Positions 8,418 to 64,000 of a stretch of 64,000 nucleotides of DNA are shown in pieces. The stretch is from Antedon mediterranea (taxonomy: Eukaryota; Animalia; Echinodermata), in contig NC_092671.1 of the NCBI RefSeq assembly GCF_964355755.1, forward strand, positions 20,088,001 to 20,152,000, written 5' to 3'. A model generated the notes under the pieces. That model was not told the origin of the DNA, did not search any database, and worked only from the letters and a program-made list of their open reading frames with translations. The position numbers were made by a program, and so were the translations under genes. Position 1 is the first letter of the stretch, and every line of letters starts with the position of its first letter.

Positions 8418-9054
8418 CTGCAAATATATTTGGTAAGTCTAGTTTTTGATAAATTTGAGTACTGCAAGTTTATGTGGTTGTATGTATTATAGCAGGTGTA
8501 AACAAATTGCATGTAAGGCATAAAGGTGCAATATGCTATATTTAGTTGCACATAATGGCCACCCATTTGTTAATATCTCCCGGTAGAAAAGGAGTTTTAG
8601 CCATTTCTTGGATGATGTTACCATGCCATTGCCTAGTGGATGTGGGAACATACCCTAAATCAATACGGCGCACCTAAATTTGTTTTACTCGAAACTCAAA
8701 ATACTACTGATATAAAAGATTGTTTGATTTTTATTTGAATGTAAATATTATATTTACATAATTTCCTTTAGGTAGTTATTATTTGCATATTTTTCTATTA
8801 TAAATTTTATTTGACTTTCATTGCAGTGATCATTAGTTGATTGGTATTCTACTGATGGCTGTCAAAGTGTGTACTATCTTTGTTCTTTTTAAACTGAGTG
8901 TGTATACTTAATGTGTTTAAGTATTATGGAACATGCAGTTACCCCCTAATGTTATACCAACATTTTGATCTTAATAGGCTTTTAATTTTCTCCCGTTGCA
9001 TCTTTTTTTCGCACCGCACCTTTAGGCAGCCATATTCCCAGAGGACATATTTAT

Positions 9055-11620
9055 TTAGAAGCTTTTTACAAAGCGAAAGCTATATATCTACGGCCGACAG
9101 TTTAGGAATTTTGTAAACTCCACTAATTTATAGGTCCATGCTGCTCGACCCAAAATACAAAAAGAAAAGAGAGTCTATGAGGTCTCACAGTTTAACGAAT
9201 TTGGATTCTCGCACTTTGATTGGTTGACGCAAATCAACACACTGCGGAAGAATTTTCTCACGTGTGCTGTAAAGTCGCGTTGTCTACGAAAACTGTTACA
9301 TACGGGAAAATAATGTATTCGTTGAATGAATTTTATAATGTTGATATACAAAATATACTACTAAAAATAGCGTAGGCCGAGTTCAGACTACTGAGGGCAC
9401 AATTTGTTTACTTCGTTCCTGGTAAAAAACGATTATTTTTCGCCATTGTTTTGGACCCTATTTTTCAAAACTGCAAGTCAGATTTTCGTAATTCTTTCTT
9501 TATTATAATATTGAAACAAAATATTAACATGCAATTTAAATGTTAATTGTTATCAATAGATAGTAGGCCTATATATGGGCTGGGTCACTAGGGAGTGATG
9601 CTCCTACCCTGGAATATGTACACTGGAGTTTAGTTTATAATTATATTTTTGTTCTGTACAGTAGGCCAGACTATGTTACACAACATGTTTACTACTGATT
9701 GTTGAGAAATTATTGTTATAAATCATTATTTCTGAAGAAAAAAGAAAACAATACGTCAAAAAAGTCAAGACGCGTTTTTTAAAAGAAATATTTCTAGTTT
9801 AAACCTTATTGTAAAACAAGCCGGAGTTTTGCCAGTGTAATTTACAGTATGTTATGTTAAACTTAAAAAAACCACAACAATCTGTTTCATAAGTCAGTAT
9901 GGCTTCTGTAGGTGTGGTGTGTTGTTAGTACCATCTTATGTAGCCTTTTTGTTTAATAAAAAACAAATTTTATTTAGTTTGTTTACGATTGAGCTGTCAG
10001 ACTTGTTACAATTTTACTGAGATTTTACTAGAGATAATTACAAATATTATCCTTATTTTTTATTTAATGCTATATTACGCTAAAAATTGTTATTGATATC
10101 TACCATTTACCAAATATATTATGATATAATTTGTTCATTAACATACCACAATTTTTTTATGATACAGTTTCTTTGCATTGTTTATTTGATGGACATGCTG
10201 CATGATTCATCAGTTTTTGTGCATTTAAAGTTATTTTAGCACCATTTTTTCCTTTTTATATACCAATTTTATTCGTTTTCAGTTTTAAAGGCTTTTTAGC
10301 GCTTTGGTCACACATTTGCATTTAGTTAATGAATTTACCTGATTTTTGGCTTTGTTGCATTGTTTAGTTAGCATGCTTTTAAGCAACATTTCACTTTTCT
10401 TCTGCTAATCTTTGCCTCTCCTGATAGTCCATTCATTAATCATTTAGATTTAATTTGAAATTTTAAATATTTGCAAATAAAATTCAATCAAAGGTAAAAA
10501 GGTTTATTCTTACTGTAATTCTGTTCTGTTTCTTTACATGCAGTTGGTATTCAATGGTGATTTCAAATGGACAATAGACACGTTTCGCGCTCGCGACCAA
10601 TCAGAAATATGGGTATAGATTTGTAAACAAACCGAACACCTCTCGCCTAGTGCGTGTTGAAGCATAGCGAAATGGCGACTGCCGAGTGCTTTTGTTGCAA
10701 GGTGCATCATAAATGTTGTATATGTTGGATAAATCGTGAATTTAACTACACAAAATCACTGAATAATATTCCTGTTTTTAATTTTCAAACACTTGCTGAG
10801 TGGTTTGCGTCGGCTCCGAAGGATAGTGGCGCAAAATCTTGGAAATTTTTCAAGGAAAGGTACGTCCACGATGTCGTCGTGTCTCTCCGCCTGCCCGGTG
10901 GCGTTGCCTGATGCGGTACTTCGTCTACTAGGCCTAGGAGGCTTGGGTGTCTGTTTAAGCGCCGAAGAACATCACATAATACATGGAAGATGCAATAGGA
11001 GCATGAAAAAGAATGAAAGATAATAATTAATATATTTACGCAACATTTGTAAATAAAATCAACAGTTAACATGTATTAAATGCACCGGAATATATATATG
11101 TGTCAAACCAAAAATGACAATACATAAATAAAGTCGATGATTCCGAACCAAATGCCCAAATAATTCTACAGTGAATATAAAACATAAGTTTAGAAAATAA
11201 ATAACAACCTTACCATGCCATTCCATCAAAGGCTAGTTTTGACGATTGCTTTTTAAGATGATCATCTCTCAGTTCTCCCATGCTTTAACATACCTCTCGC
11301 TGTGTTTGTTTACCATTGTATACCCACTAAAAGGTCAAACTGACGGTGACCTCGCGAGCGCGAAACGTGTCTATTGATGCTTAAATTTATGTGGAATTCC
11401 TCTTGAACATTAGTATTCAGTCTTGTTGCAAGTTTCTTTCCTTCATGACCTTAAGACAATAGGCCTATAATATTTCTTATTCTGAAATTTATGGTGCCCT
11501 TTGGCTTTTGAATTACACAATTCATTTAAATCTTTTGTTTTATAACATTAGCTTAAAGCCAACATCTTATTAAATATTAAAGTATTAGACTGTGGGCCAA
11601 GGCTAAAAAAGGCCTTTAGT
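9055..11620 (+). mobile_element. Helentron/HINE-like non-autonomous element
   Basis: Left hairpin AGCTTT..AAAGCT, imperfect subterminal inverted repeats (9088-9105 vs 11585-11601), right GGCC..GGCC stem followed by TAGTTTT. Confidence 0.45.
10572..11376. mobile_element. ISL2EU-like deletion derivative (MITE)
   Basis: Perfect 25-bp inverted repeat CAATAGACACGTTTCGCGCTCGCGA; remnant KSWKFFKERYVHDV...GRCNRSMKKNE resembles the N-terminus of the SWIM/YqaJ ORF of ISL2EU elements. Confidence 0.65.
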
Positions 11621-11899
11621 TTTTTAGTTCCGTAGTCCACACCTGAGGGCAACAACAGTTTTACAAGAACATGTTCACTATATTACCAAATTCCAAAAAG
11701 TAAAGAGTTCCACCAAAAAACAAAAAAAGTTGCACGTTAAGGGGGTAAAGGTCATTCAAATGTCAAAAGGGATTTTTTTTTTCAATGTAGAATAATAATA
11801 GCATTGTTTTACGAACAACAACAAGAAGTTTCAATTTGTAATAGGCTCAAAGTGTAGGCCTACAATTATAAATAACATGGACGTATATTGCTTAACATT

Positions 11900-13850
11900 T
11901 TGTATTTTCAGTATCAACTTCTAGTGTGTTTCTGACATGATGGATTATTCGAAATGGTTATGTTTTCACTAAACTTTCCAGGTGTGGATTTTTTATTGCC
12001 AAAAAATGGGTGAATAATATGCTGTGGTGCTGGTAATGAATGCTTTCTATTTTTTTTCATCTTTGGTGAAGGTGCAACAGATGTATTTGGCTCTTCTTTA
12101 GACTAGTGCTGTATGGCAATGCCATTGGTGTTATGGGTTGATCCTTTTCCAGACAAAGTCTCTTCTCCGAAGTCATTATTATCCCACACAAGGGTTTTGG
12201 AATTTGTTTTGTGAGGCATGACGGAAGTGAATTCCCTTGTTTGAGCTGCAAAGTAGCTAACGCTGTGTCATGTTGAAGAACGGATGAGTGAGAAGTGCAA
12301 TGGCCAAAGCCATTCATCAAGCCAATGAGTTTGAGACGATCCACTCAAATGGCGTAATGCCATTGAAATGGAAGTATGCTTTGGCATACTTTTTCTACCT
12401 CTTGATTCCAAGTATATAATATCTTGAGCAATAGAGAGCAATCGTCTATGATGATCAGATACTTTTACATTCTATTTCATTTGGATCAGAAGATACACCT
12501 GTTATCCATGCAAGCATGTTAAACAACTTCACAGGTATCATTTTTTGTGCTGTTCTAAATTGATATCTGTTGGCTTCGGTGGCCATGGTAAATGTTCCTT
12601 TGAGGACAGGTCATGAATTTCCATGTTTATCGAGAGAGCACATGTAAACATATCTTTGAATGTTCTCTGATGATTTATGGGTCTAATAACATTAGAACTT
12701 CCATGCATGTTTTCTGAATCAGTTGTATCAATACTGGAATCAATATCCATATCGACAATTAACATACCAGCATTGACCTCATCTACATAAAAAACTCGCT
12801 TTCATTATTTCAAAAAGCTGGGGTTATCTTTTTTTAAGTTGGCGTTTTAAATTTTATATGCACTGGCATCAACATTTTCTTGCTCACGTACAATTTGAAC
12901 AAACAATTATTTCAACTTATTCAACCTGACGATGTTTTTCTTTTGAATAAGGTCTTTATACACAATTTGACGACTTTGAATAAATTGAAATATCAGCATC
13001 ACTGGCTTGAGGTTTCCGATAAAGAACTTGTGTGTATTCCTTATGGCATAAACGGTGATACCTCAATTCAATTGCAATGCAATCTTGGTCTTTAATTTGT
13101 TGAAGCAAACGTTCATCTTGTTTTAATTCCGCTGCTTCAAGAAGGGTACCACCATTAATGTGTTCACACATCATCAATTTCTCCATGGTCCTACTCGCTT
13201 TAAATCGGTCCACTCTTCCATATCGCAGTTTTTTGCAAATAATGCATACAGCAGGAAGGACATGTTTACTCCTAGCAGGGGTACTAACACTACTAGACAC
13301 CTTTGATCTCAGACAACGAAGCCTTTTTTTTCAGTGGAACTTCATCAACATTGCCTTTAAAAAAATACCTAACAATATTTACTCGACAGTATTTTATCTT
13401 GCAATATGGATGGGGATTAAATCCTATAAAGATATGAAAACAAAGAAGCGACAGGTGATTAAAGTCAATAATTCATTCTGTAAATTTGAGTTATTAAACA
13501 AATTAAATTAGTAGACAGTGAAAAAAGGAAGATTAGTCTTTATACCATGGTCTTCCGTGTCTGATTTGGTATTCTTTATTTTTTTCTTGGCCTTCTGAAG
13601 TCTGTAGGTATCAGTAAATCGCTGATAACATCTACGCTGATATCTTCCTCCCTTATCAGGTATCGGCAGTTGGGAAATTGTATCAATATCAGATTCAGTA
13701 GATTCCAAAAATGAGGTGGAGATTTTACCCTGTTCTGTGTTATTGCAGTCTTTCCATTTAATCACATACGGTAAATGGTTTCCAGCTAGAGTCTGGTTTA
13801 TTCATGCAGTGCATGAAACATTGTTTGGTATCCATGCTTCTAAATAAAAT
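11900..13850 (-). pseudogene. AcademX-like transposase remnant (frameshifted, N-terminal half)
   Basis: CIICKK, IAIELRYHRLC, LPWPP, LIGLMNGFGHCTSHSSVLQHDTALA and WDNNDFGEETLSGKGSTHNTNGIAIQ occur across several frames. Confidence 0.7.
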
Positions 13851-13999
13851 ATGACATAGTCATGTTTAATTTGAAAATAATAATAATAAAGGTAAACCTA
13901 GCCTGGGCCTAGGTACATTAAATATTATTTATAATGACGGTATTTTAAAGCATATAGGCCTATAATATACTGTTATATTTAATTATAAATTAATAATAA

Positions 14000-14027
14000 C
14001 TAGATGGTACGCGAGCGTACCATCTAG
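14000..14027 (-). other. GC-rich hairpin ending in CTAG (Helitron/Helentron-type 3' end)
   Basis: CTAGATGGTACGC-GA-GCGTACCATCTAG, a 13-bp perfect stem next to a T-rich flank on the - strand. Confidence 0.45.
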
Positions 14028-14632
14028 GTCGTGTCCACACAGATGGTTCTTGAATACGCAGTAATTTCAGCGTAGAAAAACCGGCGATTCCAATGTACTA
14101 TAGTACATTGTCGTTTACTGAAACGAATAAATAGACACGACGGCTGAACTAAAATTAGCACCCTGGGAATTAGGCCAACTTCCGAAGGAGAAACTTGTCT
14201 TTAAAATGAGTCCAAATTTTTTATTTGAACTCATTTAAATAAACCCAATTTGTGTTCTGTATACAACATTAAAGTTGAGGGATGGGGAAGAGGATGGGAG
14301 AACAATTTTTAAATATATTCTTTATCCTCTCAGTAACGAAATAGTGTTTTAAATGTTTTATAGGCCTATCAATAATATACCACTAAATACAGTAAAACAT
14401 TTACGATTTAATACTTTTTTGAAACTGTCCCTGTTATTTCAATTCAATTCATCGACATTTTTATTCCATAATCAAAATAAAAACATATACAAATACAATA
14501 CAAATAATAAGATAATGGAATGGGATACAAAATAAGCACAAGTGCTTTAAGCATGTAACCCTAACAAAAAGATCAAACAATTAGTACACACAAAAAGAAC
14601 AAACCAAAATAACATAATGTGATTTACTTAAC

Positions 14633-17599
14633 TTAAATATTTCTATTGTTATAATATTGCTTTAATCTCTGTTTAAACAAACTTAAAGTGGGGGATTGTT
14701 TTATATAGTCTGTTAAATTGTTCCAAATATGTGTTCCTTGGTAGGAAATACATTGCTGTCCGACTTTGGTGCGTTTTAGTTGTGGACAGTAGTTTGACCT
14801 GTTTCTAGTTGAGTAATTATGGAATGAGGCAGATGTACTAAATAAGTTATTAAATGATTCAGGTAATAGATTATGTTTATATTGATACATAAATATAGCA
14901 GTGTGTTTCGTATAAAGGTCAAAAATATTTAATGTTTGGGTTGAAATAAAAAGTGGATGAGAAGGATGCATAAAATGAACATGACAAATATTTCTAAGTG
15001 TTTTTTTCTGGAGAATATGTATACGGTTTAAGTTTGTAGCAGAAGTAGCACCCCATACTGTGATAGCATACGTTATTCTAGGTAATATAAGTGCATTGTA
15101 TACCGTTAACAAGATGTTACTTGATAACATAGACTTCACTTTGTTTAAGACACCAATTATTCTAGAAATACTGTTTGCTACCTCATTTACATGAAAATTA
15201 AACGATAAAGTTTCATCCAGAAATAAGCCTAGAAATTTAACTTCAGTAGCTTTTACTATACATTCATTTCCCATCCTCAATTCTAGTGAGGTAGTGTCAG
15301 CTGACTTATTTCTAGCCTTAAATATAACATATTTTGATTTGTTTACATTTAGCGTTAATTTGTTAGCAATAAACCAGTCCGAAAGTATAGATAACTCCTG
15401 GTTCATTGTATCAAAAGCTTGAGTAATATCATTGTGACTATAAAACACATTTGTGTCATCTGCATACATAATCATGTCTACATGGTTACATGCTAGACTA
15501 ATATCATTAATGAATATAAGAAATAATAATGGACCCAATATGGATCCCTGAGGAACTCCAGTGTTTACTCTCATTTTACTAGATGCAGTATTAACAATAA
15601 ATGTGTATTGTAGTCTTTTTTTAAGATAGTTTGAGAACCAGTTTAGCGGAACTCCTCTTATACCATAAAATCTTAACTTATCTAATAATATATCATGATC
15701 GATTGTATCAAACGCTTTTGATAAATCAAGGAAAACTCCTAGTGTGAACTCTTTATTCTCAATAGCGTTTGTGATTTTTTCAATCGATTGTATTAAAGCA
15801 TGACTAGTTGAATGGTGTTGTCTAAATCCATACTGTGTTTTACTCAGTACGTTATATTTTGAGAGGTAACAAATCGTTTGATCATACACAATCCTCTCAA
15901 ATATTTTGGAAAAAAAGGGTAAAATGGAAATAGGCCGATAATTATTTATATCGGAGATGTCACCATTCTTAAATACCGGGATAACTTTAGCAATTTTTAT
16001 ATCAGCCGGGACACAGCCCGATGATAATGACGTATTAATAATATGCAATAAAGGTTTTAAAATAAACGGGGAAGCAGATTTTATGAGTTGGGCACTTATA
16101 CCATCATGGCCAGGAGAAGTATTCTTTGTGTTTTTAATATAGTGGTTAAGTTCATGTTCAGTAACAGGCTTAAAAAACATTGAAGAGGTAAAATTTCCCT
16201 TTAAGAAAGTTCTGTGGGTGATTTCTTCATTTTGAGATTCATGCCTAAATTTATTATTTAGTTTTTCTCCAATATTAATAAAAAAAGAGTTGAATGCATC
16301 AGCTTTCTCATCATTATCAGAGAAAGTCTCAGTACCCAATTTTATTTTTGTAGGCAAATTGGTAGTCTTTTTCCTACCCATTATATCATTTAGGATTGTC
16401 CACGTTTTTTTAATATCTTGTTTATTTCGTTCAAACTGGACCATATAATATTCTTTTTTCCGATTTCTAATAGTAGTGGTTAACTTGTTTCTAAAATGTA
16501 TGTACGTACTTTTATTAGTAGTGGTGTTATTTTGTTTGTACTTTTTATATAATTTATGTTTTTGAGAGATAGCTCTGGCAATTTCAGCTGTGATCCAAGG
16601 AGATTTTAACTTGTTCGCCTTATTTCTAATTCGTTTTAAAGGGAAACAATTATCAATTGTTTTATTTAAAGTGTTTGTAAAATTTTGATAAGCAACATTC
16701 GCATTATTTGAGAATAGCACATCATTCCACTGATTACTTTGTAATTCTTGCAAAAAATACTCCGTTTGTTGAGGAGAGTATTGTCGTTTATATACAAATC
16801 GAGGATATTGCTTATTATGTTTTTCCAAAGTATCTACACAGAATATTGGGAAGTGATCAGAAATATCAGTAATAAGTATTCCACTTTTAAGGGACGTAGT
16901 AAAAGAATCGATGTTGCAATAAATGTTATCAATTATTGAAGCACAATTATCGGATATTCTAGTAGGACTTTTTATGATTGGCTGAAATGACTGAGAAAAT
17001 ATTGTGTCTAAGTGTGATTGGATAGTGTTGTCGGTAGATTGTTGGAGTAAGTTTATGTTATAGTCTCCCACAAGGTAAGCTTTCTTTTTTTCTAGATTAA
17101 TCATTTGCATTACACATGTTAATTCATCATCAAACTTTTGCAAGGAACGTGAGGGTGGTCTATAAACTATACCACAAATAACATTATTTCCTGATTCTAA
17201 CTCAATCTCAATAAAAATAGTCTCTGCTTCAGTCATACAAGATGACAGATCATTTCTAATAATATATGTTAGTTTGTTGGTAACATAGAACGCTACCCCA
17301 CCACCTCTCTTATCTTTCCTATCATTGTGAATCAAACTGTAGCCTGGTAACTGGTATAGATTAATATTATCTTTTTCGGTTAACCAGGTTTCACTGAAGG
17401 CAATAACGGAGAAGGCATGTACGAGTGAGTCTAAATAGTTTGAGATTAAGTCAAACTTATTAACAACACTACGACAGTTTAGTCCAAATATAGAAAAGTT
17501 TGATGATAAATTAGAATGTTCAAGTGAAGAAATTAAGTTATCTTCGTTAAAATATTCTGTGCTCACATTTACATTATCAAAGAGGTCACATTCAAACAT
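14633..17599 (-). CDS. LINE ORF2: APE endonuclease plus reverse transcriptase, 988 aa, uninterrupted
   Basis: SETWL, GGGV, YRPP, GDYN, SDHFPI (APE); YRPISIL, QYGFR, FLDLSKAFD, GVPQGSILGP, YADD, FLG (RT). Confidence 0.97.
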   Translation of the reverse strand: MFECDLFDNVNVSTEYFNEDNLISSLEHSNLSSNFSIFGLNCRSVVNKFDLISNYLDSLVHAFSVIAFSETWLTEKDNINLYQLPGYSLIHNDRKDKRGGGVAFYVTNKLTYIIRNDLSSCMTEAETIFIEIELESGNNVICGIVYRPPSRSLQKFDDELTCVMQMINLEKKKAYLVGDYNINLLQQSTDNTIQSHLDTIFSQSFQPIIKSPTRISDNCASIIDNIYCNIDSFTTSLKSGILITDISDHFPIFCVDTLEKHNKQYPRFVYKRQYSPQQTEYFLQELQSNQWNDVLFSNNANVAYQNFTNTLNKTIDNCFPLKRIRNKANKLKSPWITAEIARAISQKHKLYKKYKQNNTTTNKSTYIHFRNKLTTTIRNRKKEYYMVQFERNKQDIKKTWTILNDIMGRKKTTNLPTKIKLGTETFSDNDEKADAFNSFFINIGEKLNNKFRHESQNEEITHRTFLKGNFTSSMFFKPVTEHELNHYIKNTKNTSPGHDGISAQLIKSASPFILKPLLHIINTSLSSGCVPADIKIAKVIPVFKNGDISDINNYRPISILPFFSKIFERIVYDQTICYLSKYNVLSKTQYGFRQHHSTSHALIQSIEKITNAIENKEFTLGVFLDLSKAFDTIDHDILLDKLRFYGIRGVPLNWFSNYLKKRLQYTFIVNTASSKMRVNTGVPQGSILGPLLFLIFINDISLACNHVDMIMYADDTNVFYSHNDITQAFDTMNQELSILSDWFIANKLTLNVNKSKYVIFKARNKSADTTSLELRMGNECIVKATEVKFLGLFLDETLSFNFHVNEVANSISRIIGVLNKVKSMLSSNILLTVYNALILPRITYAITVWGATSATNLNRIHILQKKTLRNICHVHFMHPSHPLFISTQTLNIFDLYTKHTAIFMYQYKHNLLPESFNNLFSTSASFHNYSTRNRSNYCPQLKRTKVGQQCISYQGTHIWNNLTDYIKQSPTLSLFKQRLKQYYNNRNI

Positions 17600-18334
17600 T
17601 TAAATTAGACAGAAAAGGAAATGACAAATGAATAAAATTGAGCAAGCTGCTTACAGCAGAGAATAGTTAACACATAATAGCCTAAGTTAACAAGTATGTA
17701 CAATAAATTACAATATATACAATGTAATATGAATTGTTTTATCATGACATACCAACAACAACTAAACGACAGGCAGTGAAACAATAATGATGATCATGGA
17801 CGCCAATTAAGTATTTGGTTAACTTAAAAGATTTTGATCAATCTAACTCACCGATGTCCAGAATGTATTATTATGGCAAGTTATCGTTACTCACTGGTAA
17901 GTCAAACATCGCCGGTAAACAGCTACGTTGAAACGGTCTAGAACATGATGTTCAACCCAGTAACTCATCGATGAATAACCGGTAAACAACTACGTTGAAA
18001 CTTACATCGTCAACAGCCACTTAATTGTTGTTGGTATTTCTCATTATGTAACACTATCGTCGCACACCTGCCGTGGGTCACATGAATTAAAGTTTGAATG
18101 GACAGAGATATCCAGAACATAACACTAACAGCCAGGTGCGCGACATAAACAAACAAACTTCGTTTATTTACAATTTATAACGGTAGAAATACTACTACAA
18201 TCACATAATTAGTCTACGTTCTACAAGACAATGATAGACTCTGCGGTAATGTAGGTATGAAATATAATTCATAAACATTAATTAATTGTGTTCAATTGAA
18301 CATTAATTAATTTGGCTTAATGACTTAATTATAG

Positions 18335-18458
18335 TTATTTTAGTGGCTTGTATGGCTTACCGTCGATAAACAGTTGTCCATTTCTGAATACGGGCTTACG
18401 TTTTTCGGCATATGCCTGCGCCATAATTGTAGATAATTCTCTCTTTTTCTTCATGTCA
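18335..18458 (-). pseudogene. C-terminal remnant of LINE ORF1
   Basis: DMKKKRELSTIMAQAYAEKRKPVFRNGQLFIDGKPYKPLK* resembles L1/CR1 ORF1 C-terminal domains (LxIDG). Confidence 0.6.
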
Positions 18459-18785
18459 TATATTCGATTGAAATAGTAAAGTACATGTAACGATACACCA
18501 CTACGACCTTTATATTTTTTATAATTATTAATTAATACAAACTTTAAGAATCAACTGTCAGTAATACAGTTTTTATTTGTATATTATGTGTTTATATATA
18601 TCCAGAAGTAGAGCCTGTCCCTGTTATATTCGATTGAAATACTGTAGTAAAGTACATGTAACGATACACCACTACGACGTTTATATTTTTTATAATTATT
18701 AATTAATACAAACGTTAAGAAGCAAATGTCAGTAATACAGTTTTTATTTGTATATTATGTGTTTATATATCCAGAAGTAGAGCTA
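18459..18785 (+). repeat. Tandem duplication of ~165 bp
   Basis: TATTCGATTGAAATA...GTAAAGTACATGTAACGATACACCACTACGAC...CCAGAAGTAGAGC occurs twice. Confidence 0.9.
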
Positions 18786-20407
18786 CCCACAGTCACAGTA
18801 ATAAATGTTCTTTGTATATGTGTTTATATATCTAACAGTAACCACATTCACAGTAAGAAAATTTCGATTCAAATGGCGACCAAAAATGGTTAATACGTAT
18901 TACAATATTGTAAAAGTATTACAATACTATATCTCAGTTGTAAGTTTATTCCCCAAGGGCCCATCAATTTACCTACTTGTGTTAAACCAAGGACTCATAA
19001 ATTTACCTACAAACTGGTAGATTAGAATGTTCTATTCATCGCAAATCAATACAATTGTATAAACATATATTAAATCTATCAAAATAGTATTTTTTAAAGA
19101 AAATCAGCCTGTCTTCAACATTATGATGTTGTATTCGAGCTGTTCAACCGGTTTTCAGCCATTAAAAACAATTATCATAGGAGGAGACAGGAAAATGCGA
19201 ATCATCCTCTATTATTGTATTGCGGGTATTTTTCAAGATGGACATGCATTATAGACAGTGTATACCACGATCAGAAAACACCCCTATTTGGGGACAAATC
19301 GTTGAACCTAAATTCGTTTTAATTGTCAATAACTAATTATCGAACTCAATTTAATTAGTAACATCAGGTAGTTAAAATCAGTATCGAAAGTACGAACCAA
19401 CTTTATATATCATCGAGTAAACATTCTAGAAATACAAATGGGACTCAGAATGTTTGAATACCTACCAAACAAGAGTAGATAATTGTTTATTAATTACCAA
19501 ACCCATCTTTTATATCAAAAATCAAAAACAGTATCTATGGCACGCCCATGGTGCCTTTCAGAGGAGAACAATGAGTAATGATCTAACAGCAGATCGTTAT
19601 CAGTTGTGTTCTTCTTGCATAATCTTTTTAGCATAAAATTGTTGACCAAAAACAGAGTACTCTAGTAGCTAGATCAACTTTCGTATGCACTTTAAGGTCC
19701 AGAGAATTTGACTTCAGAAATTGGTTTAGGGTGGTCAAACAATCATTTTTGGCTTGGTTACACATTTTGAAAATGTGGCGAAAGGTCAAAAGGTCAGGGT
19801 CAAAGGTTATAAAATCAAACACCATTATGTCCTTAAATCTCGACAACCACTGGTCACAGCGAGGTAATTTTGGTCTTAAATTAATCAGAAGGTATACATT
19901 TATATTCAGTCTAATGAAACATTTTAGTCGAAAATGACCGGAAATGCCATTTCTGACCTTTGACCCATAAACCAGGGCATGTCTGTATCTCCGTAACTAT
20001 TGGCCGTAGTGACTTGAATTTGGGCTCAAATTGTTCGAAATATAAATTTAGTTATTTGTTACACATTTTGAACAATGTTACAAAAGGTCAAAAGGTCAAG
20101 GCCAGGGGTTATATGAATAAACACAAATAGGTATTTGTATCTCGGCAACCACTGGTCACAGCGAGTAAATTTTGGTCTCAAAATGTTCAGAAGGTATACA
20201 TTCATATTCAGTCTAATGAAACATTTTAGTAAAAAATGACCGGAAATGACATTTCTGACCTTTGACATACATACCAGGGCATCTTCTTTTCTCTGTAAGT
20301 ACAGGTCGTAGAAACTTAAATTTAGTATCAAATTGTTAGAAATACACATATTTACATTCATTCTAACAGAAAATTTGGATAAAAGATGATCAGAAATACT
20401 ATTAATT

Positions 20408-23400: not shown

Positions 23401-23842
23401 GTTTGAACACTCTATGAATGCTATTGTGGGTATACAGGGCTGCCGAAAATCGAAAAAAGCTAATTTTGCTTAACGAAAATGGGTTTTCGGACTGCTGTAT
23501 CTTCCAAAGTAGTAGAGATAACTTTTTTTTGACACCAGATTCTGTTTATTGAGTGGGAATTATCCATAGGTAGAAATTTTCAGCTTAATATATTTGTCCG
23601 TTGCGGAAATATAAGCCTCCAAAAACACAAAATATTAAACTCCGCAATTTTGGAACGAAAAATGGGGCGAGACGCCCACATTTAAAACGGCCATATTTCC
23701 GAAACCACTTGGAATTGAGGGCTAATTTTTTGCATATGTTCATTATATAGATAGAGGTACCTTAGGAAAAAAAATCAGTAAAATCTAAGAGGTGACCTGC
23801 CCAAATTTTGTTCAGATTTGTTGATTTGGCATGGAATGACCC
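20408..23842 (-). mobile_element. Sola2-like DNA transposon, internally deleted
   Basis: GGG...CCC termini, AATT on both sides, ~930-bp TIRs; transposase remnants HQNVKL, CMMRSCTNCPG, DFAENYS, SDGAASQYKN, FFATSHGKSPCDG at 21500-22860. Confidence 0.8.
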
Positions 23843-27579: not shown

Positions 27580-27596
27580 GTGATACCAAGGCATTG

Positions 27597-49274: not shown

Positions 49275-50129
49275 ATGGGCGGCCATTAGGGCCAAAATAA
49301 ACAAACGTTACCGTACGAGCAATTCCGATCCCGTAAGCCCAAATAATGGCGTTAAAGACATAATTCCTCGAGTGACAAACAAATATTGCAGCATGGTTAA
49401 ATTGCCGAAGGGACAAAAATTGGGTTAATGATAAAATTGCCGTAAGGACAAAAATTGGCGTAAGGACAAATTAGCGAACAGTCAAAGTACATTGAGGGCA
49501 GCAAAGTATTTTAAAACCACGTGACTAAAAACACTTTGCTGGGGGTCGGTGGGGGAGGGGTCAGAAGGGTTAACAAAATAATCATGAAAGCGAGAATTGT
49601 AACAAACTTTGGAAACAGAATTCAGTGCCTTGCAACTTCTCTCGAAAATGAGGAAATTAATCTAAATCAAGTGCAATTTATTTTAGATGGGTTATGTATG
49701 CCATACAATTTGAACAATACTCGGAGTTGATGACTCTAATCAATCAAAAGTTTCGCGCCACCGAAAAGTTTCTTGTTTCGTTTCCTGTTTGCGTAGTGGT
49801 TGCATGCTGCCCTCAACGTTAACATTTAGTTAGACTGTACGTCAATTTGTCCTTACGCCAATTTTTGTCCTTTCGGCAATTTTGTCCTTACGCCAATTTT
49901 TGTCCTTTACGCCAAATTTTGTCCTTTCGACAGTTTAACCATACATCAAATTAACCATACGGCAATTTGTTCTTTCACCAATATGTTCATACGGCAATGC
50001 TGGTGTCCGTACGGCAATATTTGTTTGTCAATCAGGGAATTATGTCTTTAACGCCATTTGTTTGACTTACCGGAGCGGAATTGTTCGTACGGCAACATTT
50101 GTCTATTTTGGCCCTAGTGGCCGCCCATC
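49275..50129. mobile_element. MITE in the Gypsy integrase
   Basis: TIRs starting ATGGGCGGCCA with >100-bp inverted arms, AAATTGGCGTAAGGACAA sub-repeats, 7-bp direct repeat CAGAACT; removal restores ANAVLQPGD. Confidence 0.85.
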
Positions 50130-53508: not shown

Positions 53509-53643
53509 AAAAATCTGTGACTTCATCTGTTGGTTTTCTGACTATAGCTTTAATGCTTTTGTTGGTACCACCAGCAATAAGCTCACTACCAGCTGACCTT
53601 ATCTTGGTTATCAGCATTACGATATATAGCTGCACAATGTGTA

Positions 53644-53977
53644 TTAATTTATTTTATTTTATTCAATCGAAACCAACAGCGATATAATTACCGCCACTAA
53701 CAGGTTTGATACAAACAAAGCCAGGACTGTTTAAAGCACATTGATCAAGGGCTTCTCTCGTCCAGTGCCCACCTTGGGGGTCTGAGGCAGATACTAGATG
53801 CAGTGGCTGCTATAAGAGTCAGCAGTGCTGATTTCAAATGCCTAATGGGACCCCAGCTCCGTATACAGCACCCGCTATTCCCAGATGGTCTCCCATCTAA
53901 GCTCTAACCAGGCCCAATGTTGCTTAACTTCGGTGATCTGATGAAAACCAGTGTTTCAACGTGGTAAAGCCGTATTG
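53644..53977 (-). mobile_element. 5S rRNA-derived SINE (SINE3-type)
   Basis: 53861-53977 is a near full-length 5S sequence (GATCACCGAAGTTAAGCAAC, GGTTAG.GCTT.GATGGGAGACC, TGGGAATA.CGGGTGCTGTA) followed by a ~210-bp body and an AATAAAATAAAATAAA tail. Confidence 0.85.
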
Positions 53978-55372
53978 AAGAGTCATCTCAGGTATTGGGA
54001 ACCATCCCCTTTCTTACATTCCTGGCAGAGTTGATTGAACAATCCTGTGTTGGTACCAATAATTGCTTCATGTGAATTTTCAGTGTCTGGAACGACTAAT
54101 ACTAGAACTTCCAAATTCTTATTGGTGCCAGCAAAAGTTTGAGGGGAAAGCAATTCTAACCTTGATCCATCTGGGGTATGGTATTTTGCCACCACCACCA
54201 TGCCATAAGACTAAATCTGAAAAAGGATGCCCCCCCTTCAAATGTCCATTGGAGTTTCCCTGGTTGTACAGATGGCTAATTAATTTCTCGTTAACTAACG
54301 TGGCATTTGTAGTAGAATTTTGGGAAGTCAGATGGTTGTCGTCGTCCCCTACCTTGCCATTGGTTCATTTGTTGTTGTGGTTTTGGTTCTGGTTGCGATT
54401 GTTGACTTTGTTGCTGGGTATGAGCATTGCCTAGAATCGACTGTTTTAACATCTTCTCAATTCTGCTCATTCGCTCAATCAAATCATTATTTTGGACAGA
54501 ATGAGATGCAGCCACTGCGTTGCGGCTTTGCCCTTTAGCCTTCATCTGCCTACTTGATGTTTCTTCCTCCGCCTACTTGATGTTTCTTCCTCCCACCGTC
54601 TCACTTTTCTTAGTAGGGTAAGGTATGTTGGGGGTCCTTCTTGTAATTCTCTTAAACGCAAATCAACGAGCAGCAATTGTTCAAAGATGTTACCCCTTAT
54701 GAACTGTTCCAGTATTCATCTTGCCTTCTGAAATACCTCCCTTTTGCAGGACATGTCGTAAGGAATCCTGCAGCCGTGTATGGTAATGTGATAATAATAA
54801 TAGTAATGGTACTTGATATAGTGCATTATGCTGAAAGCCTCAATGCGCTTTACATAGACAGAAAAATTTAGAAAATTAAAAATTCAAAAGGTGGGTTTTG
54901 AGGAGAGATTCGAAGACACAGATGTCAATAAGCAACGCATTCCAATGAGAAACGGATGCAGAAGAAAAAGAACGATTTCTATAAAACTTAGAGGAAGGAT
55001 GAAATAAATGGGAAAGAGACTTGGATCCTGATCTCAGAGACCGCTTAGGAACATAAGGTTGAATAAGTTCAGAAATGAACTTGGATATAGAATTATGAAG
55101 AGCTTTGAAAACAAATAGCAGGATCTTGAAGGTAATTCTTTGTGTTACCGGAAGCCAATGAAGTTGTCTGAGCACAGGTGTGATATGTTGCCTTATGGGT
55201 CTTTTAACGACCAATCGGCAGCTGTGTTCTGGACTATATAGTAATGAATTACAACAGTCTAGCCTTGATGCAACAAAGGCGTGAACAAGAATATCAGTTG
55301 ATCTTGAATCCAGGTACTTCCGAATGCTTCCAATTTTACGAATAGCGTTGAGCCCAGATTAGCAGATGTTAT

Positions 55373-56420
55373 TCATTTTTTCATTCATTCAATCTTTTAT
55401 TTTGGAAACTCTGGTCCATAGAAAGTAAATTACATATAAATGAAATAAATTAAATAAACAAAATTACTACTACCATCTCAGGATGGCATTCCATCTGGAG
55501 AGCATTTTCGACTTAACTAGGACATTGCTTATAATCGTTGAGATTAAAATATTTTTGCTTGCATTAAGTCTACACATCAGGCCATATATTGATATTCTTA
55601 ACAATTCATAAAAAGAGGCAATTCTACATTACGTAAACATGAGGCTGGCACTGCAATGTCGAGGCCTTTGCAACAACATTCTTAAACCATTATTGTAGCA
55701 TACCTGGAGAGATCGCAAGGTACCTTGATTATAGTTGCACCATAATGTAGCACAATACATATTTACACAATATGTTCTAAATAAAACATATTTCACATTG
55801 ATAGAACACATACTAAATTTTCTGACCAAGGAGTTGGCTCGGACACACAAAGATCTGTATTGCCGCTTTATATCAAACTCATCACATGACCAAGATATGT
55901 GGTTGAGTCAACATATTCTAAGCTTTTGCCATTAATGGTAATAATAGGTTTCAATTGAATCCTCCGTGACTTAGGACAGATTATCATACAAGATGATTTC
56001 TTAGCATTGTACACAATGTACACATTTTTGGCCGCAAAGCATTCAGAAATTTTAATTAGATGTTGCAACCCTGATGCAGAAGGTGATATAAGCACCATGT
56101 CATCTGCATACAATAGGTTGTTAAATTTAATATTATTTAACTCACACCCTTCTTTGCTGTTGCTAAGCTTAATGATAAGATCATTTATATACATATTATA
56201 CAGATGGGGAGACATCACTCTAACACCATTTGATACATGAAAGGGCTCCGAAAAGGATTTGCCCCATTTCACAATAAAACACTGAATATTATACCAAGCT
56301 TTCAGTACTCTAACAATTGGACATGGAGTATCATTAATAATTAATTTCTTAAAAAGTGTCCAATGGTTCACCCTATCAAAGGCTTTAGAAGCATCGAGGT
56401 AGCATACAGGTATGGTACAG
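55373..56420 (-). mobile_element. RTE-X-like LINE 3' fragment inside L2
   Basis: 5-bp TSD GTTAT; (TGAA)n tail; LDASKAFDRVNH, LYADD, NSLVRKFSMCS..K..LFRTYC. Confidence 0.8.
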
Positions 56421-57145
56421 GTTATGTACCTGATTGGACATACTAAGCGTTGAATCCATGACCACTCCAAGGTTTCTACAGGATGACGAAGGTTGAATGA
56501 AAGAATTACCAATCTTAACAGATGCAGTCCACAGGCAGGCTTAAAACGGGAAAAATGAAAATTCAGTTTTAGCATCATTCATAACCAGTTTGTTAGATTG
56601 ACACCATGCTCGGACTTCGGCAATACAGGATTCAAGTTTACTGACAGCAGAATCATGCTGATGAGGGTTGACAATGACATAAAGCTGAGTGTCAACAGCA
56701 TACGCCATACACTTCACATTGTGAGATTCAATGAGGTCAATTAAAATAAACAGAAGAGGACCAACCACAGACCCTTGTGGAACACCTATTGTAAGCAGAG
56801 TCGGGTTCGACAAAACATCCTTGATGACAATTTACTGGGGCCTATCATTTGGATATGATGCAAACCAATTATGACTGATCCCAGAGACGTGATGATAGAC
56901 GATTTAATAACTGCTTATGGTTGATGATATCAAAAGCAGCACTGAAATCCAAAAGGACCATAAGAACCTCATTATAGTTATCAAGTGCAATGCTAATATC
57001 ATTATGCACAAGAAGTGCAGATTCTACACTATGGTTTGTACGATAGGCGGATTGTCTAGTGGCAAATAAGCCATTGCTATTCAGATATGATTGCAGCTGA
57101 CTGAACACAACCCTTTCAATAATTTTTCCAAGAAATGAAAGATTT

Positions 57146-58117
57146 CACACCTTCTGTTTTGTTGTACTTTTCTGGTGTTGTCTTTTGAATTTGATGTACC
57201 GTATATTTCGGTGTATAAGTCGCACTTTTGACACGCAAATTTGACCTCTAAATTAAGGGTGCGTCTTATACACCGAACATAAATGCCTCACCACACAGAT
57301 TGTACATAGGCCTAGGCTATGATATCGTCACCTCGTTTTCTAGGCCTGAGTTGAGTAGGCTAGGCCTAGCTACAGTAACTAACTAACGTAACGGCAACCT
57401 GCTTCTGCCTAGTTTTCAAGTCATTTTAGCATGATGTTATACTAAATATGATGAAAAGATTTGTTCATTATGGCGCTCCGATAAAATATCATTTGTAAAC
57501 GTTTACGTCGTACGATTGGAATAGTATTTATTTATACAGTAGTTATACGCACGATCGCCGTACCCCAAGCGCAAGCCCTTCTTTTGGTGGCACATGGTGT
57601 ACGGTATTCGACTAGTATATTCTCCAGGTGATTACAGCATGGACCTAGCGTACACACTTCTGGGATACATAGATACTAATCGAATACGATTGTCCGTGAA
57701 AACGTGCGCCCTCTCGAAATGATCGAGCGAGGCTAGCCCACACACGTGCGTGTTACACACACGGTCATGCACTCGATGTTGCGGCGAAACTCATGAATAA
57801 CAAGTTAGAAAGAACTTGTTGAGGCTGGGCGCGGCCGAGCCTAGGTAAGAAAAAACCTAAATAAAGGACGCCGTTGTAGATATAACAACATATATTATTA
57901 CAATAATATTGATTACAATTTAAAAAAACATTGTTTTGATGAAATATAAGGTGCGTCTTATACATCGACGATATAAAAAATACAGATATTTTACTCTCAG
58001 TTGGGGGTGCGTCTTATACACAGGTGCGACTTATACACCGAAATATACGGTACTGTTTATCGTCTTTTTTATAATGTATTTATGTATGAACCAAATAAAT
58101 TCAATCAATCAATCAGT
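57146..58117 (+). mobile_element. Short LINE/SINE 3' tail insertion in L2, itself split by a MITE
   Basis: AATAAA(TTCA)(ATCA)n tail at 58095-58117; it interrupts the L2 YR(P)ISNLSF motif. Confidence 0.55.
57199..58050. mobile_element. Tc1/mariner-pogo type MITE
   Basis: Perfect 27-bp TIR CCGTATATTTCGGTGTATAAGTCGCAC, TA TSD. Confidence 0.92.
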
Positions 58118-59118
58118 CTGTAACTTGCAAATTCCTCAGTATCCAGAGATGGCTTCTTTAACAATGGTGTTATGCTGAGTGAAGATGGAAAGATACCTAA
58201 GCTCAGTGAGGTGTTGACAACTTTGGTAAAGAAGGAAAGAAGGGTAGGAAGACAATTCTTAAATAATTTAAGAGGAAGCGGATCCAGGGAGGCTGACCTA
58301 ATGACATTAAGTAAATCATCAGCAGGGTCAAAGGTATTGAAATTACTTTTACATGATTGAGATTCAACAGTATGAGGGGAGGTTGACGAAAAAGTGCTGC
58401 AATATATCTCTTAATCTTGTTCTTAAAAAAGTCAGAGAATAGATTTGCAAGAGAATAGCATCATCATGAGCGGGAAGAGGACTAGAGATGGCAGTAACTT
58501 GTCAGCAACACGGAATAACTTGCGTTGATCACATCCTAATACCTCATCTTTGTGATACTTCGTCTTGGCCTTGAAAAGATGTTCATTGTAGTTAGTGCAC
58601 TAATTATGGTACAGTTGTTTGTCTACCATAAGACCAGATTTCAGCCACTTGCGCTCCAGACGTCGACGCTCCTGCTTCATTGAATGATGTTAACCTGTAT
58701 ACCAGGGTGCATGTGGGCGAAGCACAAGACTGCCATGCACAAGTGGAGAATGAGAATCCAATATTTTCCATGACACATTATATCCCTTCACCATAGAATC
58801 AATGTCAGAAGCCAGGGAATATTGGGAGAGAGAATCACGAACATCTGACCGGAATTTGACGATGTCTATGTTTTTGACATTTCGTGAAAGTACTTGTGTT
58901 CTGCTGGGCCCAGGACGATTGATGTCAACCTGACACTTTATGGCACGGTGGTCCAAAGACATACTATGTTGGATGGATTTTTTTCTAAGCAGGTCAGATT
59001 CTTTGCGGGAGATAAGTAAATCTAATGTATGGTTGGCGATGTGAGTTGGGTCGTGGATGTGCTGATATAAACCAAATGTCTCAAGAGTGTTTAGAAACAA
59101 TGCAGCATCCCTGTTGTC

Positions 59119-59900
59119 GAATGCGTCTTGTCGTTCTGCCCAGCACAGGTCCAGTAACGGCTTGCGTTTCAAGTTAGAGCATATTATTTCTTAAAGATGA
59201 GCCTAAGTGCCGCTGTTTCGGGGGACTATGTTTAAAGTACAGACATACAGCTTTATTTTATCTAGCATTTTGCGAACATCGGTGTTGGAACATGCATGTC
59301 CTATAACCAAATTCAGGCATTGACCAGCAATGCATATTGCTTTTGGAGCATCATCTCGAAACTGTTTCTGTACACCAATATACTTGCTGGACATCGCTGC
59401 TGTACACCAGCAAGCCCTGGCCACGCATGTTAATGATTTCAATTCCTAGGTCAGCTAGAATACACTTGATGTCATCTGCAATTTGCTGGCCAGTTGCCTG
59501 ACTTAATCCTAAAAATCTGACAAACTCTTCCTGGATATCATTAGACTCATCAACTTACCTAATGTATAAGGATAATTTTTCTTAATTATGTGACGCTGTT
59601 TTGTCCGCCAGCACACTGTAAAATTGAGCAGAGTTTATTTCATTAACTATAGCTGTTTTAGAATAATGTCATCGCTTATTACATTGATGACTTCATTTTA
59701 GATCTTTGGAGATATGTACGTTTTTTATAATTGGTGAATCTAAGACATTTTAAATTTGTGCCATTATGGGCCAACAATTTAAGGAGCGTCAGGAAGTTAC
59801 CCGGGTTGCCGTCCGTATTCAAGTTTTCCTTGTCGCCACTCAAGGCGATGCATTGTCGGCTACACCAAAGCAGTGTGTTGATTTCGTGCGATGTTCTCTT
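59119..59900 (-). pseudogene. hAT transposase remnant (ZMYM1/THAP12-like)
   Basis: NPGNFLTLLKLL, YISPKI.NEVI, FYSVLAD, IQEEFV, MRGQG, AAMSSKYIGVQ, LNLVI. Confidence 0.85.
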
Positions 59901-59960
59901 TAAATCTGGAGTCGATGATTGCAGGGATGGTTGCTTCTGGACTTTTCCTTGAGTGATACA

Positions 59961-60074
59961 TGGCCGCTAGGAAGAATAGTGAAAACATTTCCAAACAAAG
60001 ATCGGTTTGTGCAAAGAGTTAAAATTAAAACTCAAACAAATACCACTGTTCTTCCCCTGTTGGATGAAGATTAG
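59961..60074 (+). mobile_element. BEL/Pao pol C-terminal fragment
   Basis: WPLGRIVKTFPNKDRFVQRVKIKT is the typical BEL C-terminal motif. Confidence 0.75.
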
Positions 60075-60183: not shown

Positions 60184-61620
60184 CTATGATATAATAGTTA
60201 AAGAAATGATATATTTAAGCATGTAAACTTCATCACTTGGTAGTTCATTACTGTAGTAGCTTTTGCCAGACAATACGCCATACATTAAACCAGATGACAT
60301 TAGTCCAGATTCAAGCAAAATATCTGACAGTCCTGTACCTTCCATCTTTTTGCCAATCATCTTAAGATAGGCACCAACTAGATGAAATGTCCCAATTATC
60401 ACTATATGATTCTTATACTTTTCCGAGTTGTTCCATATTAGTTGATATACCTTGCATACATTCAAGTCGAAAATGTCATACCTTTGTCCTACGTCATTGG
60501 TTGCCTGCTCAGAATACCTTAAGCACTCTTGTACTGTACCATAATCTGTAATTGGTTGAGGTATGATTGGGTAATAGTCTATGGTTGTGAGGTTAGATGA
60601 GACATCTCCAGTTAGTGATATGTAACCTGCCCAACCTGGTATCTCCTGTTCTGTCCTACTACTGTACATACAAATAAAAACCCAAATGGAATAATCAGTT
60701 TTTAGGCATGTTAAAGTGACTGCCATCTTGATATGTTTCTAAACATTTCTGGAAGCCGACACATAAATAATTGCCCATAACTCCTAATATGCATGTACTG
60801 AAAAGTATCATTTTTAATGTTATGACATGCCTCAGTTGAGCTATAGTACATGTACATAGTAGTAGTATTGATTGTTTCAATACCTTTGCTTCAAAATGTG
60901 AACTGAGCCTGATCCAATAAGATCATTTACGTATTCATCAAATTCTTAGTGAAATGTTGACAAACAGGATGGATTGCAAATAATCTGAACAAACAAAAGA
61001 CTAGCTGTTTGCTGAATAGCTATTGCGGGCTCAAGCTCCAGAACAAAGCTATAGTTTTCTGAAAAGGTGCCTTAATGTAATACCAACAAAAATGTGCTTA
61101 GGTAGCTTCCACTTACCATTGGTAGCAGCTCTGCTAGATGATTTTATTTGACAGATGCAACTTTAAAAATGTTGTCATCTGGAACAACATCTAATTGGCT
61201 ATCAAGACATGCTGTTGGTGGCCATGGCAAATTGAATGCATCCAATAAAGTATTCCTTAGCAAGAAGGCAACTTCATTTAGTTTTTCTGTTGAACCTAGA
61301 TAAAATGCACTTTTAACAGCCTTGTATACTGTTCACATTGTTTTAATTTAATTTTTTAGTTTTTGCTTCTATAATTCTATATGCTGATTTCTGAAGTGCG
61401 GAAACATACACATCTTTCAAGTCTGTTAACTTTATGACCAAATGAAAATGTGTGGGCATCTTCAAGAGTTAATTGTTTTTTTTTATTTTCTTGATTTGTA
61501 CTTTTTTTCTGGATTTTGCAGATATTGTGTTAGGCAACTTTGTGATATCTGGCCTCACATGCAAATATTGCCGGTTTTAAACATCCAAGATTAGAGGTTA
61601 ACTGTTGGTAAAAGTCTCTA
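60184..61620 (-). pseudogene. Second AcademX-like transposase remnant
   Basis: FACEARYHK, LPWPPTA, KWKLPKHIFVGITLRHL, PGWAGYISL, IDYYPII, IFDLNVC, IIGTFHL, LSDILLESGL. Confidence 0.75.
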
Positions 61621-64000
61621 TGTAGCCATGAATTTCTACATAAGCAGCTATGTTATTTTCTGATTTTAACATTCGGTTAACAGAACCAAATGGCTTTTAT
61701 GACAAATATTTATAGCTATATACATGTACCTTAAAATAGTTAGGTATATAAATTCTGATTCTTAGTAACTAATCATTTTAGCCAATTTTTAAACAATAAT
61801 GTTGCATATTTAAACAATATATTGACATGTTGGTAGATACCAGAATTTTTCCATTTTCAAAAAAGATTTGACTTAAGTATATATCAAGATGGGATATTGC
61901 ATTTATGTGTTTAGATGCCATTAAGAAAAGCTTTGTCTTCATTAAGTTTTAGTTTGTTTGCAACCATCTACGAGCGTATTTCAGAAAATACATTCAGTTA
62001 GTTTATATCTAGCAGCAGATACATCCTCCTCTGACTTTGGATCGAAAGTTACATAAAGCTGTGCATCATCAACATATGTGATATGCTATACCTGATACCG
62101 TCTAATGATATCTGCTACAGGTTAAGCACAGAAAGTAAAGATCGATGGCCCTACTATAATAACTATCAAACCAACAAGAATACAGTTGATCACTTTTTTT
62201 TTTTAGTTTTATATTGCCACAGTACTCGCACAAGCAACTTACATATTTTTCTTATGCTAATAAATCAACATGTCTTTTTACTGTGCTATCAGTTTTAAAT
62301 TTTATATAAAAGATTGATATTAAAGTCACCAGTTTATAAATATGAAACTTTTCCATTATCACATGTTTTTCATAATAATTGTTAATTCTGTTATGAAGGT
62401 AATCGCATTGATTGCGCCAGGCTTATATAAGGCTAAATATTGCAGGGTCAGGTTTGGAAAGGATGTGGTTTTGCTTCAATGAAAATCGATTCAGTCTAAC
62501 AGACTGGATAGATCATCGCAACCCTTCCATTGATCTTCCGATTCTATCTTTATGGAGTAAAGTATAATTTGGTGAGAGATTATGTGAGTCAAGCACTATT
62601 TTTTTTATTTACATTTTGTTCACATCTATACTAGGCTTTCTAGTGATTTTCATTTCTATTTTGTTCACAAATTCTATTTTTACTTGCATGAACCCACCAA
62701 TCTCATCTGCTTGTTTAGCATTAACCATGTCCTCAAGAGTTCTCCTGAACCCTGTGGAAGGATACAAGGGTATTTGTATTCCTTATTGCAGAAGATTGGA
62801 CTCTTTGAACCTCCCTACCATGACGATGACAACATGATCATGCTTCTCCTTTGTTTTTAGCCTCTTCAAACTCGCTATGAATGCCAGAAAAGTGGTTTGT
62901 GTGTACCCAACACGCATGACAGATGGGTTTCGGAAGCATCCTTTGTTTAAACCTTTTGATAACTTGGCCAGACTTATGAGTGTAAATTCTATTCCTGACC
63001 ACTCATGGTCTGAAGATAAGTGTATTGCATGGTTGCAATACACTGTAAAATTTGATTATGTTATTTTTAAACACCAGATTATCCTGTCGTTGCATCAACT
63101 GAACATACATCCTTGTTCCCTTTTTACAGGATAAACACAAGGTGATAGACAGAGATAGATTAACAAGATTGTGATTAAACATAGCCTTTTTCTTGTACAG
63201 TCCTTTATATGAATTACTTCTAAAACAAACTTTGTAATTGCTGCAGATGTAAGGAAATTGAACTGAATTGCATATACGCATCAGGATGTGCTCAGCAGTA
63301 TTGCTGCCTGAATAAACTAGCCATAGCCATCCGCCATTATTATTTGCTCCAATGATCACTCCTATTAGATCGTGACAATTTAGATTGGAGAATTTATATG
63401 AGTTGTCTTCAAAGTGTGAAAGTCTAATATGATGACAGCAGGAGATTGACTTCTGCATAGGCACTCCATTAGAGTAGTAAATATAGTGCTGTATTTATTT
63501 GGGTCAAACTAAATTAAGATTTCCTCAGCCTGGTATATTGACTTCAATAATGACTTTGAATGCATCAAATTTATGCATCAATAATTCGTCCAAAGAAACA
63601 GCAAAACCATGAATAATCTATAGTTCTTTGGGATGCAAGATTCTCTTCAAAGATGTTATCAGATACTGGTAATGTGTTCAAGGTCAATCACTGTATTTTT
63701 TTTTAATTGTAAAAAAGCAATAAATGCACAAAGGTTCACATCTTTTGTATTGATTTTGTTTGATATAGCAGATGCATTTATATTAAATTAAATGGAATAT
63801 GATATTATATATATCTTCATTAGTTTTCATAATAGCATATGCTTACATAAATATTTACTGCTGTTTCCCATTCGTTTAATATAAAGTAAAGTATTTCCCG
63901 TGCAATCAAAATGTAATTTATTTTGGCAAAATATAGGCAATCATCATTCCAATAAAAAAGAACCATATTATAGGCTTGTGGGTATAACTGAATTTGATGT

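Follow-up and report, generated by a model that had tools for sequence, protein, structure and literature searches.

A one-strand pile of transposons behind FMC1 in the feather star Antedon mediterranea: a candidate read-through source of piRNAs

The FMC1 locus

The stretch of DNA considered here, called the window, comprises 64,000 nucleotides of the feather star Antedon mediterranea (contig NC_092671.1, positions 20,088,001 to 20,152,000; coordinates below count from its first letter) and has a GC content of 30-40%. It carries the gene FMC1 on the plus strand and, directly behind it, 53 kb of unrelated transposons piled up antisense to that gene. This antisense pile is real. An earlier interpretation, made from the letters alone and referred to here as the sequence-only reading, took it for a plus-strand transposon trap that produces antisense PIWI-interacting RNAs (piRNAs), is possibly fed by read-through from FMC1, and resembles flamenco of Drosophila.

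The upstream gene is indeed FMC1. The only candidate compared, P0001 ("protein FMC1 homolog [Antedon mediterranea]", 105 amino acids [aa]), is 100% identical to the plus-strand exon at 6048-6200 and aligns by tblastn to three plus-strand exons, at 5593-5661, 6048-6200, and 8323-8417; against Pfam it has a weak match to Complex1_LYR_2 (E=0.01). The coding exons run on the plus strand from 5589 to 5661 (ATG at 5593, with AG and GTAAGT ends), from 6048 to 6200, and from 8323 to 8432, with the stop codon at 8415-8417.

Where does the transcript end? Five sequencing runs contain the FMC1 region, none of them recorded as RNA, and four were compared with positions 1-20,000 of the window. Runs X2, X3, and X5 are DNA-like, with long contigs through both introns and single-copy depths of about 50, 25, and 290. 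Run X1 behaves as spliced RNA, judged by its splicing pattern alone. One 1000-letter X1 contig aligns to 8826-9366 and breaks off at an acceptor, TTGCAG, leaving 459 letters unplaced; the three FMC1 coding exons would explain 336 of these and leave 123. X1 depth in the bin that holds FMC1 exon 2 is 28.5 (28.8 would be expected from exon cover alone), and the unique part of intron 2 seems to have no X1 cover. FMC1 splice joints are absent among the 15 of 306 joints listed. Because the X1 contig stops at the acceptor and the DNA runs cross this point, a plus-strand intron (GTAAGT...TTGCAG) probably occupies 8433-8826 of the 3' untranslated region (UTR), followed by a last exon reaching to at least 10,414. 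This plus-strand last exon, with its long 3' UTR, is placed at 8827-10500 from X1 contigs at 8826-9366 and 9645-10414, its right end being an estimate, and contains AATAAA signals at 9955 and 10476. The block therefore does not begin at 9 kb, as the sequence-only reading had it, but at about 10.5 kb, since 8827 to about 10,500 belongs to FMC1. Its first element starts at 10572, no more than about 100 bases past the distal AATAAA.

Several other features of the gene deserve mention. The putative 3' UTR intron opens just 15 nucleotides past the stop codon, and the last exon thereafter is about 1.6 kb long. A CpG-rich segment at 3139-3229 with a GTAACA donor is a candidate noncoding first exon and could account for the 123 unplaced X1 letters. 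Upstream of and within the 5' region of FMC1, 499-5330 contains nested high-copy repeat sequence flanked on either side by palindromic 15/32-bp units, as well as four copies of a 131-bp repeat family.

One-sided orientation of the block

Stop-free frames of at least 50 aa, 150 per strand, were compared with Pfam; the minus-strand scan left out four alternative frames nested in the open reading frames (ORFs) of two long interspersed nuclear elements (LINEs). On the minus strand, 11 of the 150 frames match transposon domains (RVT_1 in seven, along with endonuclease, SWIM, DDE_1, and integrase), eight of them above the Pfam cut-off. On the plus strand, a single frame of 150 lies above the cut-off, DUF5641 at 59919-60071, and six others are weak and unrelated. 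A comparison that needs no family names gives the same direction: past 9 kb, stop-free frames of at least 120 aa number 18 on the minus strand versus 3 on the plus strand.

Counted strictly, 11 firmly supported units lie on the minus strand versus one, a BEL fragment, on the plus strand (p=0.006). Including the weak hAT, kinase, and second L2-type units yields 14:1 (p=0.001), and adding two noncoding minus-strand units and one plus-strand tail yields 16:2 (p=0.0013). DNA transposons on their own stand at 6:0, all minus, in what is a small sample (p=0.031). By bases, 14,006 of 14,105 oriented positions with tool support are minus, and Gypsy accounts for about 9-10% of the oriented sequence, as one unit. 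Several units are nested, so the counts are not fully independent. The 14:1 bias claimed earlier is thus real, at 11:1 or, with weak units, 14:1, although one piece that entered it, a "Sola3-like" element, had no match in two homology searches. The accompanying p of about 0.001 is recovered for 14:1 but ignores the selection of the window from a very large scan. Superfamily names finer than a Pfam domain (Academ, Sola2, Rex1, RTE-X, L2, CR1, and BEL for DUF5641) are putative, some of them taken from the sequence-only reading.

Composition of the block

The block was first described as fragments throughout. It is instead of mixed age, an intact LINE lying beside pieces full of stops. This LINE, at 14430-18459 on the minus strand (putatively of the CR1 group), is inserted in a high-copy repeat, is present in about 30-150 copies, and keeps an unbroken 988-aa endonuclease-reverse transcriptase ORF2 at 14633-17599. 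The joint 14429-18460, its empty insertion site, occurs in all four runs. To judge from tens of near-identical genomic copies, the family is recently active. Other genomic copies have 156 additional letters at 17951.

What else does the block contain? At its left edge lies a short element with terminal inverted repeats (TIRs), at 10572-11376, whose ends can be read and which has about 100 copies by DNA depth; it cannot be oriented. It is followed on the minus strand by a broken transposase, putatively Academ-type (11944-13315), of about two copies, with thin X1 cover and tblastn support from 33 of 67 queries (E=1e-16). These queries are relatives, up to about 1,600 aa long, of a 184-aa frame at 60.2-60.7 kb, and they match both this piece at 11.9-13.3 kb and the second Academ-type transposase remnant (60256-61568, with 67 relatives at no more than 71% identity); both lie on the minus strand. 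DNA depth over 11826-13715 is about 1.5-2 copies, which suggests that the decayed transposase piece there has a duplicate elsewhere, perhaps in a sister locus.

A long fold-back element without orientation (19435-26607; inverted repeats I2, I4, I10, and I23; arms up to 98% complementary) holds a Sola2-type DNA transposon on the minus strand (20408-23842), which has TIRs of about 930 bp starting with GGG and an AATT target duplication. The Sola2 name rests on the TIR and target-duplication rules of the superfamily. Defining features of Academ or Sola2 are not given in the accessible part of PMC10294476. Of the 2,203 relatives of the frame at 21.8-22.1 kb, the best 150 all match 21450-22844 on the minus strand only (150/150, best E=5e-78); the transposase encoded there is broken. 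Neither the center of the fold-back element nor the upstream segment 1700-2500 has a meaningful Pfam match. The fold-back element, 7 kb in all, consists partly of a 150/301-bp repeat that is also found at 7594-7880 in an FMC1 intron, and if transcribed it would give long double-stranded RNA, a possible source of small interfering RNAs.

Further along the minus strand are a MULE-type DNA transposon remnant (27210-32496) with TIRs (I11) and a SWIM finger at 29226-29492 (E=6e-6), and the ORFs at 33908-35246 that had been called Sola3-like, for which two homology searches returned no relatives. A LINE-type 3' tail at 36889-36913, also minus, consists of AATAAA and a short tandem repeat. Adjoining it is a weak, decayed protein-kinase remnant (37700-38200, minus), for which all seven PDB matches are kinases (best E=0.2) and no Pfam match exists; it may be a retrocopy or mobile-element cargo.

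The minus-strand pogo-type DNA transposon at 38363-42487 has TIRs, a TA duplication, and DDE_1 at 39657-40124, and includes a tRNA-like short interspersed nuclear element (SINE) at 41165-41262 on the same strand, which was picked out by eye from stretches resembling A and B boxes. A scripted SINE rule returned no minus-strand SINE, missing this one; its two plus-strand look-alikes (2697 and 33744) were left uncounted. ARAGORN found no tRNA in the window. At 42700-43190, again minus, lie open frames with a stretch that resembles a winged-helix DNA-binding motif; the open frame 42924-43187 has no Pfam match, and all its Atlas leads are below 0.9.

Then follow, all on the minus strand, a LINE with endonuclease and reverse transcriptase frames (44657-47725; Rex1-type in the sequence-only reading) and a broken Gypsy-type long terminal repeat (LTR) element of approximate outer limits (48364-52000), which has reverse transcriptase and integrase and is split by a TIR element at 49275-50128. 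Solo LTRs had also been reported on this strand, and a scripted rule gave seven candidates, none convincing. A SINE3 on the minus strand occupies 53640-53977, its 5S rRNA-derived head at 53860-53977 (Rfam RF00001, E=2e-13) being joined to a tail. An L2-type LINE (54879-59190, minus; RVT_1 at 56544-57144) is split by a TIR element at 57196-58053 (I20) and by a second minus-strand LINE, a 3' part with its tail (55380-56578; RVT_1, E=8e-14; called RTE-X type earlier). The short plus-strand LINE tail noted near 58100 was recovered by the scripted tail rule at 58094-58112, a sense exception. That rule gave five matches, two of which were dropped (14476, within a LINE 3' end, and 31758, of low complexity).

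Near the right end, a minus-strand transposase remnant at 59201-59950 matches DUF4371 below the cut-off (E=8e-4) and is putatively of hAT type. Beside it lies the plus-strand DUF5641 fragment (59955-60053, E=1.9e-5, above the cut-off; putatively BEL/Pao-type), at 59.9-60.1 kb the only plus-strand coding remnant found. Past the second Academ-type remnant comes a weak, decayed L2-type LINE on the minus strand (61900-63494; RVT_1, E=0.034), which stood outside the earlier count.

Interpretation

The block is tentatively regarded here as a predicted read-through, uni-strand source of piRNAs, of the kind found downstream of genes in mammals (piC-DoGs) or in mosquitoes (core clusters), a possibility that falls somewhat short of probable. 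RNA polymerase II would run on beyond the poly(A) sites of FMC1 and feed the block, so that some plus-strand transcripts would go on for tens of kilobases and carry antisense copies of every insert. Cutting of these transcripts would yield PIWI-bound piRNAs able to silence related elements at other sites. Selection would retain antisense inserts as useful guides, and sense inserts would be purged or would stop the transcript. The strand evidence suggests this reading. A bias antisense to the adjoining expressed gene, starting at the end of that gene, fits the layout of piC-DoGs and mosquito core clusters, and the 6:0 orientation of the DNA transposons speaks against ordinary intronic selection. 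The transposon trap of the sequence-only reading therefore stands as to layout, which is real and fitting, with its piRNA output a prediction from that layout.

Does RNA enter the block? An X1 contig aligns to 11826-12842 at depth 9.5, with 3 differing and 18 gap letters in 1009, and this cover of the first transposase remnant hinted at something compatible with low-level read-through. The proposed read-through from FMC1, with its strand and its continuity across the block as predictions, has in its favor this thin cover at 11.8-12.8 kb and the direct precedents.

A number of observations weigh against a read-through piRNA source. The remnant under the X1 contig is present about 1.8-1.9 times, so that its other copy may be the source of the RNA, and X1 depth per copy (4.9 and 9.0) falls inside the spread of high-copy bins, which for 24 of them has a median of 3.4 and a range of 0.9-13.5. 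Among the contigs listed, none spans 10.4-11.8 kb. Contigs carry no strand or level, their depth gauges expression poorly, the RNA status of X1 is the tool's guess, and the RNA cover pertains to positions 1-20,000 only. Depletion of poly(A) signals on the plus strand at 10.5-64 kb was not found; the trend is opposite, with 101 AATAAA on the plus strand versus 72 on the minus strand (p=0.033), or 63 versus 44 in spacers (p=0.08). Spacers have no T-over-A skew, a slight plus-strand T-richness being lost once oriented elements are masked. Antisense content behind a gene does not suffice to predict read-through in mouse, according to the portion of PMC11615739 at hand. Finally, the window was selected out of many scanned, which keeps chance in play as the source of such a bias.

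Two further results also count against it: U1-type donor words at 10.5-64 kb have no strand bias, and CpG transitions between inverted-repeat arms, a possible sign of local methylation, are not in excess (5/44 versus 21/262 and 3/30 versus 19/245). Old remnants are often CpG-poor (0.20-0.70, versus 0.63-0.69 in the pair of LINE frames with the least decay). Gene-body methylation of a transcribed unit could produce such a loss (PMC11292947, in its accessible part), and it does not separate the rival explanations.

What else could produce such a pile? The block might lie inside a long plus-strand unit, either a large intron of a gene or long noncoding RNA or a long isoform of FMC1, where ordinary selection removes sense inserts. 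LINEs and LTR elements within introns generally lean toward antisense (PMC4353498, in the part available), a ratio of 11:1 would be unremarkable against a background of 75% antisense (one-sided p=0.16; 0.04 at 65%), and CpG-poor old remnants are what gene-body methylation would leave. Exons with a known domain, on the other hand, did not turn up on the plus strand. The claim that no recognizable intact host gene follows FMC1 held up: none of the 150 plus-strand frames at 10.5-64 kb has a host-gene domain above the cut-off, and 35 shorter exon-like plus-strand candidates, from a rule that recovers FMC1 exon 2, have no Pfam match. This is a weak test, as FMC1 exon 2 itself has no relevant Pfam match and would escape it, as would other short exons without a Pfam family or any exon outside the 64-kb window. 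The FMC1 transcript, moreover, appears to finish in an ordinary last exon. The best discriminator is the DNA transposons: in the introns of cichlids, antisense bias is seen for LINEs and LTR elements and not for DNA transposons (PMC4353498, same part), whereas here the bias is not confined to retroelements, a distinction resting on six elements. A long plus-strand unit is unlikely.

It is also unlikely that the block is just a transposon graveyard of the ordinary kind, situated where genes are few. Its bias would be a chance extreme among many windows, aided by nested insertions, and one such case is expected per roughly 160 (11:1) to 1,000 (14:1) comparable blocks. The nesting of several units, together with the lack of poly(A)-signal depletion, transcription skew, and CpG-transition excess in repeat arms, suits this explanation. 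But the bias runs in the direction predicted from the neighboring gene, the block begins where that gene ends, thin RNA cover exists at 11.8-12.8 kb, and probably little of the genome consists of blocks that pack a dozen orientable units into 53 kb.

That the block is a uni-strand piRNA cluster transcribed independently of FMC1, from a separate promoter near 9-11 kb as flamenco has beside its neighbor, is improbable: the strand evidence is identical to that for read-through and flam-type clusters use discrete promoters (PMC10643416, in its accessible part), but the signs of a promoter are confined to CpG level (observed/expected 0.98-1.02) and CCAAT-like words near 9220 and 10597, the region at 9-10.4 kb lies under X1 contigs taken as the FMC1 last exon, and the CpG-rich stretch at 10.6-11.4 kb is part of the TIR element of about 100 copies.

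Significance

Among the titles and opening parts of abstracts returned by searches for crinoid or echinoderm piRNA clusters, none concerns a crinoid piRNA cluster, though cluster tables in the supplements of papers could bear on this, and echinoderm piRNA source loci seem barely described. A stronger version of the read-through reading would make this the first crinoid read-through piRNA cluster, in which a leaky housekeeping mitochondrial gene drives an antisense archive of all transposon classes, DNA transposons and SINEs included, with recent capture of an intact LINE; this is doubtful. Were this version true, and like loci present in other animals, placing piRNA clusters downstream of genes would count as an ancient mechanism shared across animals, and such clusters could be predicted from DNA alone. 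Human FMC1 reads through into LUC7L2, and this would point to termination that has long been weak at the gene. None of the six frames of the window contains a LUC7-type first-exon motif. Because the putative driver gene has a name and the junctions are specific to the locus, the read-through question is directly testable, and the locus would test whether the read-through model of mammals and mosquitoes reaches non-chordate deuterostomes. If it fails, the locus helps to gauge how frequently transposons pile up on one strand with no role in piRNA production.

Relation to known piRNA loci

How does the block compare with described piRNA sources? The papers cited in this section are drawn upon for the parts available. 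Like flamenco and flam-like loci, it stores nested pieces of transposons on one strand, next to a host gene (PMC10643416, PMC11400887). Those loci are, however, rich in Gypsy, are driven from a separate promoter, and function in the follicle cells of the ovary (PMC11400887, PMC10643416), whereas Gypsy makes up about 9-10% of the oriented sequence here and does not dominate. "Flamenco-like" is therefore too specific a label. In the slug Arion vulgaris and in planarians, uni-strand clusters are defined by small-RNA data, and the parts available mention no tie to an upstream gene (PMC11615739).

Closer likenesses exist downstream of genes. Mosquito core clusters begin directly where an expressed gene of the same orientation ends, and they contain antisense inserts (10.1101/2022.08.22.504762). 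Those of Aedes differ in being rich in fragments of non-retroviral viruses, none of which were found here, and chromatin and piRNA data exist for them. In the piC-DoGs of mouse, human, and hamster, host promoters drive 3'-extended transcripts of more than 50 kb through dense antisense fragments (PMC11615739). There piRNAs and read-through RNAs have been sequenced, whereas the feather-star locus is known from its DNA layout; the inserts are mainly LINE-1 and endogenous retroviruses, whereas about half of the units here are DNA transposons, and the phylum is another. The arrangement itself is the same in both, with dense antisense transposon pieces extending for tens of kilobases right behind a gene whose coding sequence and splicing are intact. 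In Antedon mediterranea, FMC1 lies on the plus strand, its last exon runs to about 10.4 kb, the first element follows at 10572, and the antisense density is that given above, 11:1 on the strict count and 14:1 with weak units.

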